Below are positions 2,784 to 48,300 of a stretch of 64,000 bases of DNA, piece after piece. Each line of letters begins with the position of its first letter. Within the stretch, counting starts at the first letter, position 1. Origin of the DNA: a virus (taxonomy: Duplodnaviria > Heunggongvirae > Uroviricota > Caudoviricetes); IMG/VR virus record IMGVR_UViG_3300031712_000052, positions 30,666 through 94,665 of that record; one strand, 5' to 3'. The position numbers and the translations under genes were made by a program. The notes beneath the pieces are model-generated. The model saw only the letters and a program-made list of their open reading frames with translations. It did not search any database and had not been told where the DNA came from.

Positions 2784-3383
2784 ATGGCCTATGTAACAGA
2801 GGGACATTCAGGATCAAGTGGACCCGCAGGACCATCAGGGCCATCTGGACCAGCAGGAGCACAAGGGCCATCAGGAGTACAGGGACCGTCAGGAGTGTCT
2901 GGACCTTCGGGACCGTCTGTATCAGGACCGTCAGGACCAGCAGGAGCACAAGGACCGTCAGGAGTGTCTGGACCTTCGGGACCGTCTGTATCAGGACCGT
3001 CAGGACCAGCAGGAGCACAAGGACCGTCAGGACCAGCAGGAGCATCCTCAACTGAGGCATTGGTACAGGGGCCCAATTTGGGGAATGCCGATGTAACATT
3101 TCATCCCGGTATAGACTGTGCCAGTCTATACGAGATACCTGCTGGCACTATGACGGGACCTCACAATTACAAAGCAGGTAATGATGGTACTATACCAAAC
3201 AACTTAGATGTATTTATCGTGTGTCGCGATCTGAGTACGAATGTCCCTACCATACTAAATGGTGGGGAAGGACTAGGGGTGTTATCAGCTTTTCCGGGCA
3301 CTAGACCAAGTCCTATGGGTATGTGGATACACTGGGATGGGACCAATTGGTACTGTGATAGTATTGTATGGATTAAGCCATGA
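2784..3383 (+). CDS. Collagen-like repeat protein. It has Gly-Pro-Ser/Gly-Pro-Ala triplets and a C-terminal globular domain, and is tail-fibre or decoration-like.
   Basis: AAGGAG RBS, then ATG 2784. About 30 uninterrupted G-X-Y triplets. Two tandem 69-bp DNA repeat units span 2886-3023, and partial upstream copies extend the motif toward about 2835. Confidence 0.7.
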   Translation: MAYVTEGHSGSSGPAGPSGPSGPAGAQGPSGVQGPSGVSGPSGPSVSGPSGPAGAQGPSGVSGPSGPSVSGPSGPAGAQGPSGPAGASSTEALVQGPNLGNADVTFHPGIDCASLYEIPAGTMTGPHNYKAGNDGTIPNNLDVFIVCRDLSTNVPTILNGGEGLGVLSAFPGTRPSPMGMWIHWDGTNWYCDSIVWIKP

Positions 3384-9414: not shown

Positions 9415-10210
9415 CGCTCAAGATCCTAGTAGCCGTGTCTTTGCCGCCTCGGAGCTTACGTCTTCGTGGGGGAATGACCCATTAAACTACCTGGTCAGGG
9501 TGTTCGTGGCCTTCCTGCAAACCATCTGGGAGACAGCCCCAAAAGGAAGCTTCCATTGGACCCCCCTTTCGGAGGAAACTGAACTAGTCATAACCGAAGA
9601 GAATCCTGTGCACGTGGAAACGATGGAAAAACGCCCAGCCATAGCAGTTACCCTTGGACCTACACGGTTCAATGGTAGCTCGTTGGACGATCTTGTAATG
9701 CGAGATGCCAGGAATGCTGCGGAGAAGCATACAGACCTGCTGCCTACCAACGTCACCATCAACTGCTTGTCTAGGGTACCATCTGAAGCTCGATTTCTGG
9801 CTTGGCAGAACGCTCGTATGATCTGGAGTCTTCGTAAGTTATTCATCGCAGAAAAGGGTATCCAGGAGTGCGGTCGTAAAAATGAGGTAGGATCAGTCAC
9901 CCCAGCTGGAGCTCTAGTGCTAGGAGATACAGAGGCGGAGTGGACAGTGTGTCCAGTAACCGTGCCTGTGTACTTGCAATACACAGATTTAGTCACACCA
10001 TTGAAGAGCGAATTCAATGGGCATCCAATTCACACTCTCGAGCACATCACAACCAGTTTTCGTACAAGAACGAGTGCGATTAGATCTAGCATGAATCTAC
10101 CAGAAGCATACAACCGAGTACCTGTGATGGTAGACCGTGGACTAGATACAATGAGAGGTGGACCACGACCACCTCTTAGAGGACAAATAATTCAGGAACG
10201 TAAGATCTAA
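9407..10210 (+). CDS. Hypothetical protein.
   Basis: ATG 9407 (MSNAQDPSS) overlaps the upstream stop by 8 nt. The longer ORF from 9311 is probably an artefact. Confidence 0.5.
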   Translation: MSNAQDPSSRVFAASELTSSWGNDPLNYLVRVFVAFLQTIWETAPKGSFHWTPLSEETELVITEENPVHVETMEKRPAIAVTLGPTRFNGSSLDDLVMRDARNAAEKHTDLLPTNVTINCLSRVPSEARFLAWQNARMIWSLRKLFIAEKGIQECGRKNEVGSVTPAGALVLGDTEAEWTVCPVTVPVYLQYTDLVTPLKSEFNGHPIHTLEHITTSFRTRTSAIRSSMNLPEAYNRVPVMVDRGLDTMRGGPRPPLRGQIIQERKI

Positions 10211-37908: not shown

Positions 37909-38910
37909 CTGTACCTACTTCTTTGTGTCTTTAGCTATTGTTACACAGTGAATCTAGATATAACCCGAGAGCGTTTTTCACTGTACCTACTTCTTTGCTT
38001 CTCTACTCATTGTTACGTATCTTGAACCCCAGCGTGGACACTCGGCCTGAAACTGTACCTACTTCTTTGTTTCTCTACTCATTGTTGATTCTTGCGGTGG
38101 CTTGCTGTACCTACTTCTTTGCTTACGTGTACGCGAACCCAGTTAGCTATCTGTACCTACTTCTTTGCTTCTTCTAACCCGTCGATTTTGCTGTACCTAC
38201 TTCTTTGTTTCTACATTAGTTGTTACGGCGTCGTGTCCAACCCGAAAGGTGACTGTACCTACTTCTTTGCTTCTCTACGCATTGTTACTCGGGCACCGAA
38301 CTCTTCTCATCCTGTACCTACTTCTTTGCTTCTATACCCATTGTTACGACCCATGCAGCTTTCTTCGGGGTGAACCCGTGGACTGTACCTACTTCCTTGT
38401 TTCTCTACTCATTGTTACAGGGTGACCAACCTGTGTTTCCTTTGCCGCCGTCTTCTGTACCTACTTCTTTGTTTCTTGGTTATCCCGTTTGTGGCACTTG
38501 TATGTCTTCTGCCTGTACCTACTTTTTTGCTTCTTTAGCCATTGTTACTTGTCCGACGGTCACACGGCAGAAAGCAGGAAATCATCTGTACCTACTTCTT
38601 TGTTTCTCGACTCATTGTTACATCCCCAAAGGCCGTTCCCAAGCGCACCAACACTCTGTACCTACTTCCTTGTTTCTCGACTCATTGTTACGTGGCCGTA
38701 ACAATGACAGCGGCACCGAGCCGGGCTGCTGTACCTACTTCTTTGTTTCTCTACTCATTGTTACCTGGGCGTGCCGCTGGTGGCCCTGTTCAGAAAGCCA
38801 CCTGTACCTACTTCTTTGTTTCTCTACTCATTGTTACCTAGTTGCCTTTGATTCTTTGGGTAGACTGCAGTCGACTGTACCTACTTCTTTGTTTCTCTAC
38901 TCATTGTTAC
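37909..38910 (-). CRISPR. CRISPR array. It has a 36-nt repeat, 13 full copies, 3 truncated copies and 15 unique spacers of roughly 16-37 nt.
   Basis: Repeats start at 37909 (degenerate), 37981, 38053, 38105 (20-nt fragment), 38151 (20-nt fragment), 38191, 38253, 38312, 38383, 38455 (22-nt fragment), 38513, 38586, 38656, 38729, 38802 and 38875. The three copies at the high-coordinate end are identical. The strand is inferred from the polymorphism gradient and the cas operon direction. Confidence 0.9.
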
Positions 38911-38959
38911 AGCAGCGTCTAAAAGGTAAGCACTTTCGGTAAGTTAATAGGGCAATTAC

Positions 38960-39011
38960 GAGCACCTCAGATTTGCTGGTAATGAAGCCAGTTATCAAAT
39001 CTGAGGTGCTC
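38960..39011. terminator. Long perfect hairpin, GAGCACCTCAGATTTG...CAAATCTGAGGTGCTC, between the 194-aa gene stop and the array.
   Basis: 16-bp inverted repeat with a 20-nt loop. It could be a terminator or a processing element. Confidence 0.45.
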
Positions 39012-39017
39012 GCTATG

Positions 39018-39602
39018 TTACTGCTTGCTCAACTTCTCTTTGAACTTCTCCACCTTCTCCTCGGCCACCTCGGCTCTCTTCTCTGCCGCGAGCCTCTTTC
39101 TCTTCTCTTCCTTGAGCTGTTTCTCAAGGTCCTTGATGATTTCGTGTAGCCTCGCGGTCTCTGACTGCTTCCCACCCACTCCAACCTTAGGAGCCACTAC
39201 CTTTGACACCATCCTGGTGACTGCCTCTGTGGATGGTTTCCTACCCCTTTCCTCATACCACTGCTCAAGCTGGGTCATCATGTCCTTCTCTACACGCGAG
39301 TCGGGCGGTAGACGAATACATGTGATAGCCGACTCCACCCCATACTTCAGCACCCACTCTCTCCCAAAGCGTTCGAGGGCTGTGCCTAGCCGCTTGAACT
39401 TTGCTGGGGACCAAGAGAACTCAGTCTCCAAGCAGTCTCCAAAGGTGCCGTACTTGACTTTCCAGAGCTCATTGTCCCTGAGATTCTCACAGACGTAGTC
39501 GTAGAACTTCAGGATGAACTCATCTGGCTTGAGGAGGAAAGACCTTGCAGTGGTGATGACTGCTATGAACTTCTCTACCAATCTGTCTCCTACATTACTC
39601 AT
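39018..39602 (-). CDS. Unknown 194-aa protein, translationally coupled to the Cas12-like gene. It has a C-terminal Lys/Glu coiled-coil tail.
   Basis: Its ATG overlaps the stop of the upstream gene by 4 nt. It lies between the effector gene and the array. Confidence 0.55.
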   Translation of the reverse strand: MSNVGDRLVEKFIAVITTARSFLLKPDEFILKFYDYVCENLRDNELWKVKYGTFGDCLETEFSWSPAKFKRLGTALERFGREWVLKYGVESAITCIRLPPDSRVEKDMMTQLEQWYEERGRKPSTEAVTRMVSKVVAPKVGVGGKQSETARLHEIIKDLEKQLKEEKRKRLAAEKRAEVAEEKVEKFKEKLSKQ

Positions 39603-41275
39603 CGTGTGTCCCTTTCAGCTTTAGTCTTTGGGGGTTTCTTCCCTTTCATCTTTCCTTTGGATGCCTCGTTCAATGTCTGTTGCAACTCTTCACGTACCAG
39701 CCAATACCTGCTGTTCTGGGGCAGGTCTACCTTTTTGGCCAGGCTCAAGTCTATGATCGCATTTTCAATTGCGATGCGATCTATGTGGCCACTGTAGGTG
39801 CACTTGACACAGTTGAAGCGCCAATTCTTGAAGTCCAAGGCAGCCTCATTGAGGCTGCCACAGCTAGGGCATCGGCGGGTGTGGTAGAAGGTCTTGAACT
39901 TCTCAACCTCCACACCATGTTTGGCTGCGTCCTGGGTGACGTAGTCAACAATCTTGAACCAAGGTGCTTGGTGCACCGCCACCTTGATCCACGGGTCAAG
40001 GTCTGACTCCTCAGCTCTCTTTCGGATGTTCCTGAGCTCAGGAAGCCAGATCTTACTGCGTGTGTTTATCGCCTTGCCCACAATGCGAGCCGCTACCTTC
40101 CTGCAGAAACTGTCCACCACCTCGGCCTCATCATTGTCTAGCTTGAACCTGTTGACTTGATACATGTGCCCTTTACCAGGCACTCGAAGCTGGCTGCATC
40201 TCTGAATCTCTTTCCGTCTGGCACGAATACGCCCTCTCCTCGCAGCGAAACCATCACCAAACACCCAGAACCCCTGGCTCCTATTGAGAGCCTCCTCCAC
40301 TGTGAGAGCCACTGTGAATACCTTCAACCCACAGTGAACTATGATGTTGTTCTTCACTGCTAGCACTGGTGGCTTGGGTCGGCGGTACTGAAGGAGGACA
40401 AACCACTTATTGTCCTCACGATACAGACCCATAGTGCCTGGAGCCCAGACATCCTGAGTGGGTACAGCAGTGGCTAGGTCTTTCCTGAGGTATTCTCCCG
40501 CTGCAACTCTACTCAGAACTCCACGCACGTAGTTGTCTTGCTTGGCTTTCCTCAACCTCAAGGCCAAGTTCCACCATGTCCCATCCAAGTTCACCGATAT
40601 GTTCATGCCATCTCTGCGTGAGAACCTCCAGCCGGTAGGACGAAGCCACACAGGCCAGCTGTCCTTGATGTTCATTACCGACTCTTCACCTATGGCGACT
40701 TTCTTGAGACTCTTGGTGAATGCCTCCGCAAGTCGGCGTGACATTGCACCAGTGACGGAGGAGCTGACTTGTGGCACACGTTCCTCATCCATCCCTCCCA
40801 CCAGTTCTCTGCCCACGACCCTATAGGCGAGTGTGCCCAGCACCTCTCGCTCATCCGCTCTTGGCTCCAGCCTCACTCTCTTCTTCTTTTCAGGGTCTTG
40901 CTGGGTTGTGTCCAGGGCTGGAAGCGGCTTGTCCAGGTTGAGCCACATGCTTCGTATGGCGGCATTGCCAGCTATCCTCACCCTCTTCTGGATGAGGGTA
41001 AGTACACGAAAAAACGCTCTAGCGATTGTCCTTGGTTCTTCGAGAACCGGGGGTGCGTTTTCGATCTTCTTGCCGTTCTTGTCTTTGGGTGATACCCAAA
41101 CCTTGGGTAGCCAGGCATGCTTGCCACCTGCTACCGGAATAAAGTGTTCTCTCTTTTCCGGTACGTCACTGAGGAAAGAGATGGGATCTTTGCACCTGTC
41201 CAATGCTGTAGCTACCTCGAGTTTGAGGATGCCCAGCATCTCATGCTTTCTCTTCTCACGAGTTGCTTTGTTCAT
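39599..41275 (-). CDS. cas12-like: Compact 558-aa type V Cas12/TnpB-like RuvC nuclease with a zinc ribbon.
   Basis: RuvC-II IWLPELRNI. Zinc ribbon CPSCG...CVKC. RuvC-III GHIDRIAIENAI matches the TnpB/Cas12 HADxNAAxNI motif. The candidate RuvC-I is ISVNLDGTWWNLAL. AAGGAA RBS. Confidence 0.75.
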   Translation of the reverse strand: MNKATREKRKHEMLGILKLEVATALDRCKDPISFLSDVPEKREHFIPVAGGKHAWLPKVWVSPKDKNGKKIENAPPVLEEPRTIARAFFRVLTLIQKRVRIAGNAAIRSMWLNLDKPLPALDTTQQDPEKKKRVRLEPRADEREVLGTLAYRVVGRELVGGMDEERVPQVSSSVTGAMSRRLAEAFTKSLKKVAIGEESVMNIKDSWPVWLRPTGWRFSRRDGMNISVNLDGTWWNLALRLRKAKQDNYVRGVLSRVAAGEYLRKDLATAVPTQDVWAPGTMGLYREDNKWFVLLQYRRPKPPVLAVKNNIIVHCGLKVFTVALTVEEALNRSQGFWVFGDGFAARRGRIRARRKEIQRCSQLRVPGKGHMYQVNRFKLDNDEAEVVDSFCRKVAARIVGKAINTRSKIWLPELRNIRKRAEESDLDPWIKVAVHQAPWFKIVDYVTQDAAKHGVEVEKFKTFYHTRRCPSCGSLNEAALDFKNWRFNCVKCTYSGHIDRIAIENAIIDLSLAKKVDLPQNSRYWLVREELQQTLNEASKGKMKGKKPPKTKAERDTR

Positions 41276-41298: not shown

Positions 41299-41560
41299 TG
41301 TTGATCTAAATGAATGGCTGCATGTAAGATGAGGTTACCAAAGAAGTAGGTAGTCCCTGAACTAGTCAGGAACGCATGGTAGCTAGCTTGCGCTAGTACC
41401 TCAGCAGAGCGGCTCGCGGGAGTGAAATCCGGCGACTTCTCCGCTATTGGGCCGTGCCATCGACCCCTCACGCTTTAGATCATAGCTGAACTAGTCAACC
41501 AGACCCTAGGCATGGGTGGTGCCTCACCCCTCACATGCAGCCATTCATTCAGATCAACAG
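41299..41560 (-). ncRNA. Candidate structured ncRNA, tracrRNA-like, or a MITE-like element. It is bounded by about 38-bp imperfect inverted repeats and contains a 14-nt anti-repeat at 41339-41352.
   Basis: The segment at 41299-41336 is the inverse complement of 41522-41560. CAAAGAAGTAGGTA at 41339-41352 is the inverse complement of repeat nucleotides 4-17. Internal direct repeats are CTGAACTAGTCA x2 and CCCCTCAC x2. Confidence 0.35.
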
Positions 41561-41620
41561 ATAGGGAAAAGTAATCTTCTCTATCTATATTCCTTATACC
41601 GCTAGCACAACACAATTTGC

Positions 41621-41648
41621 GGGCAAAAGAAAGGCCAATGCCTTTCTC
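41621..41648 (-). terminator. Minus-strand rho-independent terminator, AGAAAGGC-ATTG-GCCTTTCT followed by TTTT.
   Basis: 8-bp stem followed by a T-run on the minus strand. It is flanked by a second hairpin at 41651-41681. Confidence 0.5.
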
Positions 41649-41705
41649 CTGAATCACTGGCTTCGCGACTGTCAGTGATTCAGCCTAGCCACATTATGCA
41701 TGTTT

Positions 41706-42179
41706 CTACAACTGTACCTTTCTACTCTTACGTGGCCGGGGAGAGTAAGAGGTATGCGATGCTCTCCTACTGATGTCCATGAGCTGTCTGAGCCTTTCAG
41801 GTGTGATGTCCCTATCATTGATCAGGCCAGCTCTCCTCAAGCCTTTAGCTACCTTGGCCACAGCATTGACCTCGAGTTGTCTAACACGTTCGCGGGTGAC
41901 ACCAAGAGTGATACCTACTTCATTCAAGGTATGGTCTCTGGTGGTCAGCTTCAGTACGCATGGCTGCCCCCGCTGCTTGGTTAGGGCTGTATCCCTGGCA
42001 TCATGTGCTATGTGATACCTGCAATACTTGAGTGGGCAGATACCACTCTTGCTGAGACATTGACCATCGGTGACTTCGAAGATGTTCTCAGGGTCTATGT
42101 GGTCTGGTACTGAGTCCAGGCGTTCATTCTCTTCCACTCTATTGGCTGCAGCCAATAGACCTACTTCATCATCAATCAT
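41706..42179 (-). CDS. Sigma-70 region-4-like HTH protein, a small sigma factor or transcription regulator.
   Basis: TLNEVGITLGVTRERVRQLEVNAVAKV matches the sigma r4.2 consensus TLEEVG..GVTRERIRQIE.KAL.KL. Confidence 0.6.
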   Translation of the reverse strand: MIDDEVGLLAAANRVEENERLDSVPDHIDPENIFEVTDGQCLSKSGICPLKYCRYHIAHDARDTALTKQRGQPCVLKLTTRDHTLNEVGITLGVTRERVRQLEVNAVAKVAKGLRRAGLINDRDITPERLRQLMDISRRASHTSYSPRPRKSRKVQL

Positions 42180-48223: not shown

Positions 48224-48300
48224 ATCCTCAGTAGCCTGAGACCTTCTCACTAGCCTCTCCTCAGTAGCCTCTCCTCAGTAGCCTCTCCTCAGTAGCCTGG
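48224..48300. repeat. Tandem 14-bp repeat TAGCCTCTCCTCAG, three full copies plus partial copies, in the strand-switch intergenic region.
   Basis: Full copies at 48251-48292. Partial copies at 48226-48250 and 48293-48300. Confidence 0.7.

Follow-up and report, generated by a model that had tools for sequence, protein, structure and literature searches.

The window, by which we mean the whole 64-kb stretch of viral DNA analysed here, carries on its minus strand a CRISPR locus with a structured segment, closed by an unusual long end-stem, in front of the effector gene. The main features, in the order in which they are read on that strand, are as follows.

42179 to 41706, minus strand: Sigma70_r4 protein, 157 aa, upstream of the effector
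41299 to 41559, minus strand: candidate tracrRNA-like structured RNA; with its closing stem it measures 261 nt
39599 to 41275, minus strand: effector, 558 aa, Cas12f-like, with degenerate RuvC motifs
39018 to 39602, minus strand: partner protein, 194 aa here and ~200 aa in the family; conserved, all-helical, with a long C-terminal helix
37909 to 38910, minus strand: CRISPR array of 16 repeats; the minus-strand repeat, 36 nt, is GTAACAATGAGTAGAGAAACAAAGAAGTAGGTACAG

The effector gene (41275 to 39599) is thus followed by the 194-aa ORF (39602 to 39018) and then by the array. The block that the earlier note had flagged takes up most of the 430-nt gap between the Sigma70_r4 gene and the effector; it is separated by 23 nt from the effector ATG and by 2.4 kb from the array, and shares their strand. 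Fold searches with the ~200-aa partner protein gave no assignable fold. The Sigma70_r4 gene is followed by two terminator-like hairpins (41629-41683), the second with a U-run. The sigma Pfam domain had no match in the other nine loci compared below, and a Sigma70_r4 neighbour is found only in the window.

The effector contains a Cas12f1-like TNB domain (PF07282, 2.8e-8) and matches Cas12f chains among PDB sequences (CnCas12f1, 8hr5, 5e-8). Its 558 aa fit the small size of Cas12f proteins (about 400-700 aa), with a Cas12f/TnpB fold and a zinc-finger (TNB) domain. When an AlphaFold model (pLDDT 82.7) was compared with solved structures by Foldseek, the top matches were all Cas12f (E = 1e-19 to 1e-11): AsCas12f ranked first (1e-19), then Sp, Os, Cn and Al3Cas12f, a solved dCas12f (9n9c, 5e-12) and Un1Cas12f (1e-11), followed by TnpB (1e-10), with CasPhi only at about 1e-5. 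This ranking indicates that the system is Cas12f-like and not like CasPhi, with which the earlier note had compared it. Alignment of the family shows an invariant His (VHCGL) where RuvC-I would have its Asp; E, T, A, S or D stands at the RuvC-II Glu position, and D or E at that of RuvC-III. The C-terminal zinc-finger and RuvC-III region is intact. The intact RuvC triad (Asp, Glu, Asp) that characterizes type V-F is therefore missing from the family. We infer that canonical RuvC catalysis was lost and that the effector is apparently nuclease-dead.

This effector family (34-48% identity) is rare. A word-indexed protein search with the effector returned only the phage itself, scans of IMG/VR with the effector or the family alignment returned only the phage itself or nothing, and a search of a genome collection for the family returned nothing. 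An exhaustive phmmer search recovered about 11 further clusters at 34-46% identity, after which the scores fell to the generic TnpB/Cas12f level. A search of the literature found no description of this Cas12f-like phage effector family. The contigs compared with the window were nine family members (L006-L014), three copies of the same phage (L003-L005) and a 90%-identical relative (L015); two further contigs, L018 and L019, are without the upstream region and contribute no element. The related contigs look phage-like, with many small ORFs, a DNA polymerase and an SNF2 helicase. The array lies downstream of the effector in L006, L008, L010, L011 and L012; the L007 and L009 contigs end in the first repeat.

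The repeat of the window array is purine-rich and has a minimum free energy of 0 kcal/mol. Across the loci, the repeats range from 0 to -6 kcal/mol, none of them better than shuffles, unlike the structured repeats of Cas12a and CasPhi. Since the repeats are unstructured, a scaffold acting in trans would be needed, and Cas12f relatives of the effector work with a guide RNA of about 200 nt (PMC12255294). The spacers had no match in the rest of the 64-kb window, and ten concatenated spacers had none among GenBank phages by blastn.

The structured block upstream of the effector is made up of the following parts.

41522 to 41559, minus strand: 5' strand of the closing stem, an inverted-repeat arm that pairs with 41299-41336
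41517 to 41521, minus strand: CACCA linker, whose ACC pairs with the GGU of GGUAA as the junction helix
41399 to 41466, minus strand: conserved core, consisting of hairpin H2 and a three-part helix H3, with GAGAAGYC ... ACGCU ... CNAAGG
41339 to 41352, minus strand: anti-repeat, as RNA UACCUACUUCUUUG, then GUAAC (41334-41338)
41299 to 41336, minus strand: 3' strand of the closing stem, ending 23 nt before the effector ATG

The earlier note had singled out the anti-repeat as the exact inverse complement of repeat nucleotides 4-17, and this was confirmed. The 14-mer CAAAGAAGTAGGTA occurs once on the plus strand, at 41339-41352, and is unique outside the array. Its reverse complement is present in 16/16 repeats, exactly in 13 and with one mismatch in 3, and two of these three variant repeats are still compatible with the anti-repeat through G·U pairing. 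If up to two mismatches are allowed, the window contains 18 matches to CAAAGAAGTAGGTA, where shuffled sequences lead one to expect 0.4. Repeat nucleotides 4-17, counted on the plus strand, correspond to nucleotides 20-33 of 36 on the effector strand, and the cognate duplex between anti-repeat and repeat is worth -21.5 kcal/mol in the window. Truncated repeats in the arrays of the window, L008 and L010 retain exactly the part that pairs with the anti-repeat; in the window array only the 3' 18-21 nt are kept.

The inverted repeats that bound the block had been described as imperfect and about 38 bp long. Length and end coordinates were about right, since the stem folded as minus-strand RNA comprises 36 pairs (33 Watson-Crick and 3 G·U), and the string quoted for the arm is 36 nt, not 38. 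At its outer end, 41299-41328 is 93% complementary to 41530-41559 over 30 nt, with 201 nt between the arms; the two mismatches in these 30-nt arms become G·U on minus-strand RNA and A·C on plus-strand RNA. The internal direct repeats reported earlier, two copies of each, were also found, displaced by 1-2 nt at most: CTGAACTAGTCA at 41357-41368 and 41486-41497, and CCCCTCAC at 41464-41471 and 41527-41534. Within the element, each copy of CTGAACTAGTCA caps a hairpin of its own; CTGAACTAGTCA is also found a third time at 9579, within an ORF, probably by chance. The minus-strand fold of the whole element reaches -136.2 kcal/mol (z = -9.95 against shuffles) and the plus-strand fold -116.5 kcal/mol (z = -6.8 against shuffles). 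No Rfam family matched the element itself; in the 36-44 kb region, at E <= 1, the search returned one weak ctRNA match (E = 0.39), on the upstream terminator hairpin.

An element of this kind recurs upstream of the effector in every family member with a known repeat, namely eight divergent loci (window, L006-L012), whose effectors are 32-48% identical to one another, and L015. Across the eight loci it measures 219-265 nt and lies directly upstream of the effector on the effector strand, with 13-117 nt between the 3' arm and the annotated effector ATG. A long inverted repeat was found just upstream of the effector in all eight, in seven by one scan and in L012 by a second scan; the arms are 20-31 nt by the seed method and 24-36 bp as RNA, with 170-205 nt between them. 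In the seven loci measured, cognate arms pair at -46 to -65 kcal/mol (-58.3 kcal/mol in the window), against a cross-locus mean of -16.8, and each arm pairs only with its own partner.

These stems bear directly on the possibility that the block is a MITE-like mobile insertion which captured a repeat fragment, an alternative suggested by the 30-nt imperfect inverted repeats that flank the ~260-bp block. Inverted repeats of a mobile element would be shared between its copies, but the arms are unrelated between loci (~26% identity) and complementary within each; this pairing within the locus only speaks against a MITE. Moreover, the element occurs once in each locus, at a syntenic position in all related loci, and diverges less than the gene next to it. 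Elsewhere in the 64-kb window the arm sequence does not recur, the element had no blastn match in GenBank phages, and an arm 18-mer has only two matches in IMG/VR, both in unrelated coding DNA and attributable to chance. There is also no target-site duplication at the flanks, which read ...GTAGTT before TGTTGATC at one end and GATAGG... after GATCAACA at the other. We thus regard a mobile insertion as extremely improbable, and what the earlier note called terminal inverted repeats would instead form an RNA stem.

Plain MAFFT alignments of the full elements were too poor for covariation analysis, and we used module alignments (A4, A8) together with cross-locus energy matrices. Each locus RNA, folded alone, gives the same helix order. 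In the core alignment of nine loci, 96% of the cells are paired and compensatory changes are present in 9 of the 14 pairs, a result reached by none of 500 shuffles; when the partner columns were slid, pairing collapsed to 32-41%. A covariance model of the core, R1, scores 65 bits in the window (E = 2e-15) and was matched exactly once by each of ten sources, in every case upstream of the effector and on its strand. Among the ten are L014 (36.8 bits, E = 1e-7) and L015, both outside the seed. The junction alignment A8, which was hand-trimmed to the structure and hence leans towards it, has 98.6% of its cells paired, with changes on both sides in 7 of 9 pairs; the junction GGU:ACC becomes GCU:AGC in L007 and likewise, after a one-column shift, in L010. 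In L013 and L014 the core is present, but there are no arrays within 6 kb on either side and no anti-repeat was identified in either when we looked for one, so that the RNA may have another role there.

If the element pairs with the crRNA, the anti-repeat would be expected to follow the repeat as the latter diverges. Each locus has one long reverse-complement match to its own repeat outside the array, on the effector strand and upstream of the effector. The anti-repeats, 11-16 pairs long over the eight loci, are as follows.

Window: 14 nt, exact
L006: 1820-1832, 13 nt, exact
L008: 201-216, 16 nt, exact
L010: 5897-5912, 16 nt, exact
L007: AAACCGATCCG against CGGATCGGTTT (first repeat, at the contig end), 11 nt, exact
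L009: CCAACTCTCGG against CTGAGAGTTGG (first repeat, at the contig end), 11 pairs, one of them G·U
L011: duplex interrupted by a small internal loop
L012: duplex with one bulged nt

In all eight loci the pairing covers repeat nt 20 to 32-35, though the repeat sequences differ. Cognate duplexes reach -18 to -31 kcal/mol, against a mean of -11.5 for non-cognate combinations. The anti-repeat is followed by GUAA(C) or CUAA in every locus, and RGARA precedes the duplex on the crRNA side. Anti-repeat and repeat thus co-vary among the relatives.

Accessibility of the anti-repeat was judged from opening-energy and duplex calculations in place of RNAcofold. Co-folding of the element with a repeat-spacer unit was uninformative, the duplex being pseudoknotted relative to the closing stem: because the anti-repeat sits within a closed multiloop, co-folding cannot represent its duplex. 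In the window, the anti-repeat is the most accessible segment of the RNA, with an opening energy of 4.2 kcal/mol against a median of 12.4 and a pairing probability of 0.26 against 0.75. It is among the most open segments in all eight RNAs (opening cost of 2.7-7.5 kcal/mol against medians of 9-14; pairing probability of 0.13-0.56 against about 0.72). A 14-bp helix at the anti-repeat would need some rearrangement or opening of the stem.

The strand from which the RNA would be made is suggested by its wobble pairs. Folded as effector-strand RNA, the closing stems contain 18 G·U pairs, compared with 5 for the opposite strand, and the minimum free energy is lower on the effector strand in 7/8 loci. 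The comparison with L015 is informative in the same respect: its element is 97.3% identical to that of the window, against 86.5% for the effector gene, and far more divergence is seen in the intergenic DNA that adjoins the element on its upstream side. Three substitutions fall in stems of the L015 element (C:G to U·G, A:U to G·U and G·U to G:C), and pairing is kept only on effector-strand RNA; the two in the 3' arm (A to G and U to C) leave pairing intact on minus-strand RNA only. The G·U bias and the L015 substitutions point to the effector strand, and the proposal of a tracrRNA that shares its strand with the pre-crRNA is thus supported by comparison, through the eight loci, L015 and the covarying stems.

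The same evidence weighs on the reading of the anti-repeat as an inverted, degenerate solo repeat, which would be transcribed from the plus strand as an orphan guide (CreR- or tracr-L-like) and would autoregulate the effector promoter. The plus-strand 14-mer is indeed identical to the conserved 3' part of the repeat, and 5 nt after it begins a 12-nt sequence that recurs at 41486-41497, so that the adjacent "spacer", CCTGAACTAGTCAGG..., partially matches GCTGAACTAGTCAAC 129 nt away. However, the match ends 3 nt short of the repeat 3' end (GTC for CAG), leaving the handle incomplete, and the duplicated 12-mer is absent from the other loci, where the two sites are unrelated hairpins. The segment lies within a conserved effector-strand structure in all loci, and the minus strand is the one favoured by the G·U pairs and by the substitutions in L015. 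An orphan guide is therefore very unlikely in our opinion; the anti-repeat may have evolved from a degenerate solo repeat, but it is no longer one.

How the RNA would be transcribed is suggested by its surroundings. In the window, L010 and L011, no terminator-like site was found between the element and the start codon of the effector, and the upstream gene ends in a terminator-like hairpin; the RNA would for these reasons most simply be the 5' leader of the effector transcript. Scans for a sigma-70 consensus promoter near the element called none. A TATAAG hexamer at 41593-41598 is kept in L015; its surroundings are not.

A leader position raises the question of a purely cis-acting role, in which the anti-repeat would sense how abundant the pre-crRNA or crRNA is, or would be bound by the effector so that the latter regulates its own expression, with no part in the guide complex. 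The constant position directly upstream of the effector start (13-117 nt), without a terminator-like site between, is what such a leader would show. Several observations speak against this being its only function. The unstructured repeats and the ~200-nt guide RNA used by Cas12f relatives (PMC12255294) argue that a scaffold is needed, and the element is the only conserved structured RNA in the loci. Its conserved multi-helix core is more elaborate than a pairing sensor requires. The ribosome-binding site is outside the structure, so that pairing would not obviously control translation. We consider an exclusively cis-acting leader unlikely, and a cis-acting role and a scaffold role can in any case coexist.

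In two loci the parts of the element are joined in a different order. In the standard arrangement (window and L006-L010), the 5' arm is followed by CACCA, H1, H2 and the core, then by H4, H5, the anti-repeat, GGUAA and the 3' arm. In the permuted arrangement (L011 and L012), the 5' arm is followed by (H5), the anti-repeat, GGUAAC and a short 6-bp hairpin, then by CACCA, H1, H2, the core, (H4) and the 3' arm. The short hairpin of the permuted RNAs fits the columns of the inner long stem in the standard form. In the effector tree, L011 stands beside L007, and L012 beside L010 and L008, and the break points differ; from the different clades and different break points we read two independent permutation events. 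The long helix is always at the RNA ends, and the equivalent helix in the other topology is short. We therefore infer that the long stem would serve to form or process the RNA ends and lie outside the core that the protein binds. A literature search found no description of permuted tracrRNAs. These natural permutations separate the end-joining or processing helix from the core helices and may thus guide the design of single-guide RNAs.

Position in a CRISPR locus, an anti-repeat, and co-variation of anti-repeat and repeat, three of the features by which a tracrRNA is recognized, are present at this locus. We thus consider it likely that 41299-41559 encodes a minus-strand, trans-acting scaffold RNA of ~220-260 nt, a tracrRNA for the Cas12f-like effector. 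The RNA would be made as the 5' leader of the effector transcript and then excised at its 24-36 bp terminal stem, cleavage being most plausibly performed by the host RNase III. The excised molecule is predicted to consist of a long closing stem, the GGU:ACC junction helix, H1, H2, the three-part core, H4, H5 and an exposed anti-repeat. The single-stranded UACCUACUUCUUUG would pair with nt 20-33 of every repeat, 3 nt upstream of the spacer, and the tracrRNA would provide the structured scaffold that the repeat is without. The guide loaded into the effector would then be a dual RNA, the 3' handle and spacer of the crRNA being paired to the tracrRNA. Given that the effector family is without the RuvC-I Asp and does not conserve a Glu at RuvC-II, binding of targets without cleavage is the probable activity of the complex.

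A broader and more tentative reading, which we hold to be possible rather than probable, is that these loci represent an undescribed phage-borne type V subtype. It would combine a RuvC-dead Cas12f-like effector, a coiled-coil partner (~200 aa), an array whose units can be reduced to an 18-nt handle with a short spacer, and a leader-excised tracrRNA permuted at least twice. The system would act as a programmable DNA-binding silencer or regulator of genes of the host or of rival elements, not as a nuclease. If the tracrRNA assignment is true, the element supplies the missing guide component of a compact (~560 aa), naturally nuclease-dead, array-programmed phage DNA binder, and eight natural repeat/anti-repeat/scaffold variants are available for reconstitution. 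Phages would then be using array-guided binding, not cutting, together with a partner protein.

Among known RNAs, the tracrRNAs of type V-F systems (Un1Cas12f1, AsCas12f, SpCas12f1 and CnCas12f1) are the closest kind, and the effector is nearest to these proteins by sequence and fold. In both cases a long structured RNA lies beside the effector, its anti-repeat is directed to the spacer-adjacent segment of the repeat, and the repeat is unstructured. Visual inspection shows a resemblance of the core to part of the Un1Cas12f1 scaffold (hairpin - AAUG - UCGAGAAGUGC, hairpin, UAACCCUCGA - AAC; bioRxiv 10.1101/2022.10.20.513037). However, an nhmmer search with the core profile against that scaffold did not rise above shuffles and Rfam gave no match, and for these reasons homology to known Cas12f tracrRNAs is not demonstrable. 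Unlike the V-F RNAs, the window-type RNA is wholly enclosed by a 24-36 bp terminal stem, and its anti-repeat forms 11-16 pairs in one stretch, located within a multiloop. The element would moreover reside in the leader of the effector gene; it exists in circularly permuted versions, and its effector is without the RuvC-I Asp.

The proteins of the dCas12f-sigmaE systems, which carry out RNA-guided transcription (Hoffmann et al., Nature 2026, PMC13472631), are also Cas12f-derived and predicted to be nuclease-dead, and the window has a Sigma70_r4 gene upstream. In these systems of Bacteroidota, a C-terminal truncation inactivates the protein, a chimeric single gRNA of 85-105 nt is encoded downstream and no tracrRNA was found (PMC13472631). 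In contrast, the loci described here are phage-like, inactivation is by substitution, and a CRISPR array is accompanied by a separate upstream RNA of ~240 nt. An operonic, co-evolving ECF sigma factor is likewise absent: Sigma70_r4 is present only in the window, and the terminator-like hairpins separate it from the element. The solved dCas12f (9n9c) ranks below active Cas12f proteins in the Foldseek comparison. The same study mentions a separate dCas12f cluster adjacent to CRISPR arrays, upstream of which lie covarying RNAs (PMC13472631). Cas12r of Thermus phages, which we also considered, is a different, active system without a tracrRNA and is unrelated.

The closing stem has parallels outside CRISPR systems. 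Long stems processed by RNase III bracket functional RNAs in rRNA precursors and at the processing sites of phage early transcripts. Similarly, a helix of at least 24 bp joins the 5' and 3' ends of the element RNA, in standard and permuted forms alike; processing is a prediction here, and unlike those stems the closing stem may instead stabilise the RNA or bind a protein.

Two other classes of RNA accompany related effectors. A scoutRNA is a small non-coding RNA beside a type V effector, short and with only a few nt complementary to the repeat. The window-type RNA is likewise a small non-coding RNA with a type V neighbour, but it measures ~240 nt and forms 11-16 pairs with the repeat. The scoutRNA of types V-C and V-D is mentioned in bioRxiv 10.64898/2026.04.20.719267. 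Finally, the omegaRNAs (reRNAs) of TnpB and the guides of TldRs, the latter being nuclease-dead TnpB derivatives that act as repressors (PMC10705468), likewise combine a TnpB-fold protein with a structured scaffold of about 100-250 nt ending beside the guide. In an omegaRNA the guide is attached, in one molecule that overlaps the 3' end of the gene, whereas in the window system scaffold and guide are encoded by separate genes and would be held together through base pairing, and the scaffold lies upstream of the effector.

The catalytic residues of the effector family depart from those of its relatives. In A2, our alignment of the family, an invariant His (VHCGL) stands throughout in place of the RuvC-I Asp of Cas12f/TnpB proteins, and the RuvC-II Glu is not conserved (window member at 39599-41275 (-)). 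Because of these two changes, the family looks naturally nuclease-dead as judged from sequence, yet the CRISPR array is retained.

In the interior of the window array (38104-38320), several units are cut to a repeat of ~18-21 nt and a spacer of 17-26 nt, and shortened units are also present in the arrays of L008 and L010, two other contigs encoding family members. What remains of the repeat in these units is exactly the segment that pairs with the anti-repeat of the tracrRNA-like element, plus CAG. The array is flanked by the following structure:

38959-39012: hairpin whose 17-bp stem is perfectly paired and encloses a 20-nt loop; it sits in the gap that separates the partner gene from the first repeat.

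This hairpin is without a U-run and is conserved in L015, a 90%-identical relative; possible roles are processing or termination at the array leader.

The architecture of the RNA element itself varies across the family. In L011 (5642-5883) and L012 (961-1225), whose effectors belong to different clades, the element is circularly permuted: the core comes after the anti-repeat, and the position of hairpins H4 and H5 now holds the long stem. The conserved core was also found upstream of the effector in L013 (5861-5930) and L014 (5856-5927), both of which carry the partner gene. In these two loci, no CRISPR array lies within 6 kb in either direction and no recognisable anti-repeat was found; their guide may be located elsewhere or be differently organised.

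On the minus-strand RNA of the window element, the copies of UGACUAGUUCAG at 41357-41368 and 41486-41497 each cap a hairpin of their own, one H1 and the other H5, and since ACUAGU is self-complementary, the two loops could kiss. The duplication is retained in L015 and has no equivalent in more distant loci. UGACUAGUUCAG is present in the DNA a third time, at 9579-9590 within an ORF, probably by chance. Other repeats in the window are tandem arrays of CAGGACCAT-like units with periods of 9, 27 and 69 nt at 2819-3046, possibly a collagen-like coding repeat, and 3.8 tandem copies of a 14-nt unit at 48246-48298. L005, one assembly of the same phage, has a break at its position 1, which falls 10 nt ahead of the element's 5' arm; the assembly probably broke there at the long inverted repeat.

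Directly upstream in the window lie:

41706-42179, minus strand: gene whose 157-aa product contains a Sigma-70 region 4 domain.
41629-41683: two hairpins after the sigma-like gene, the second with a U-run and terminator-like.

By this upstream gene the window can be likened to the dCas12f-sigmaE systems, but the other loci of the effector family have no sigma-like gene.
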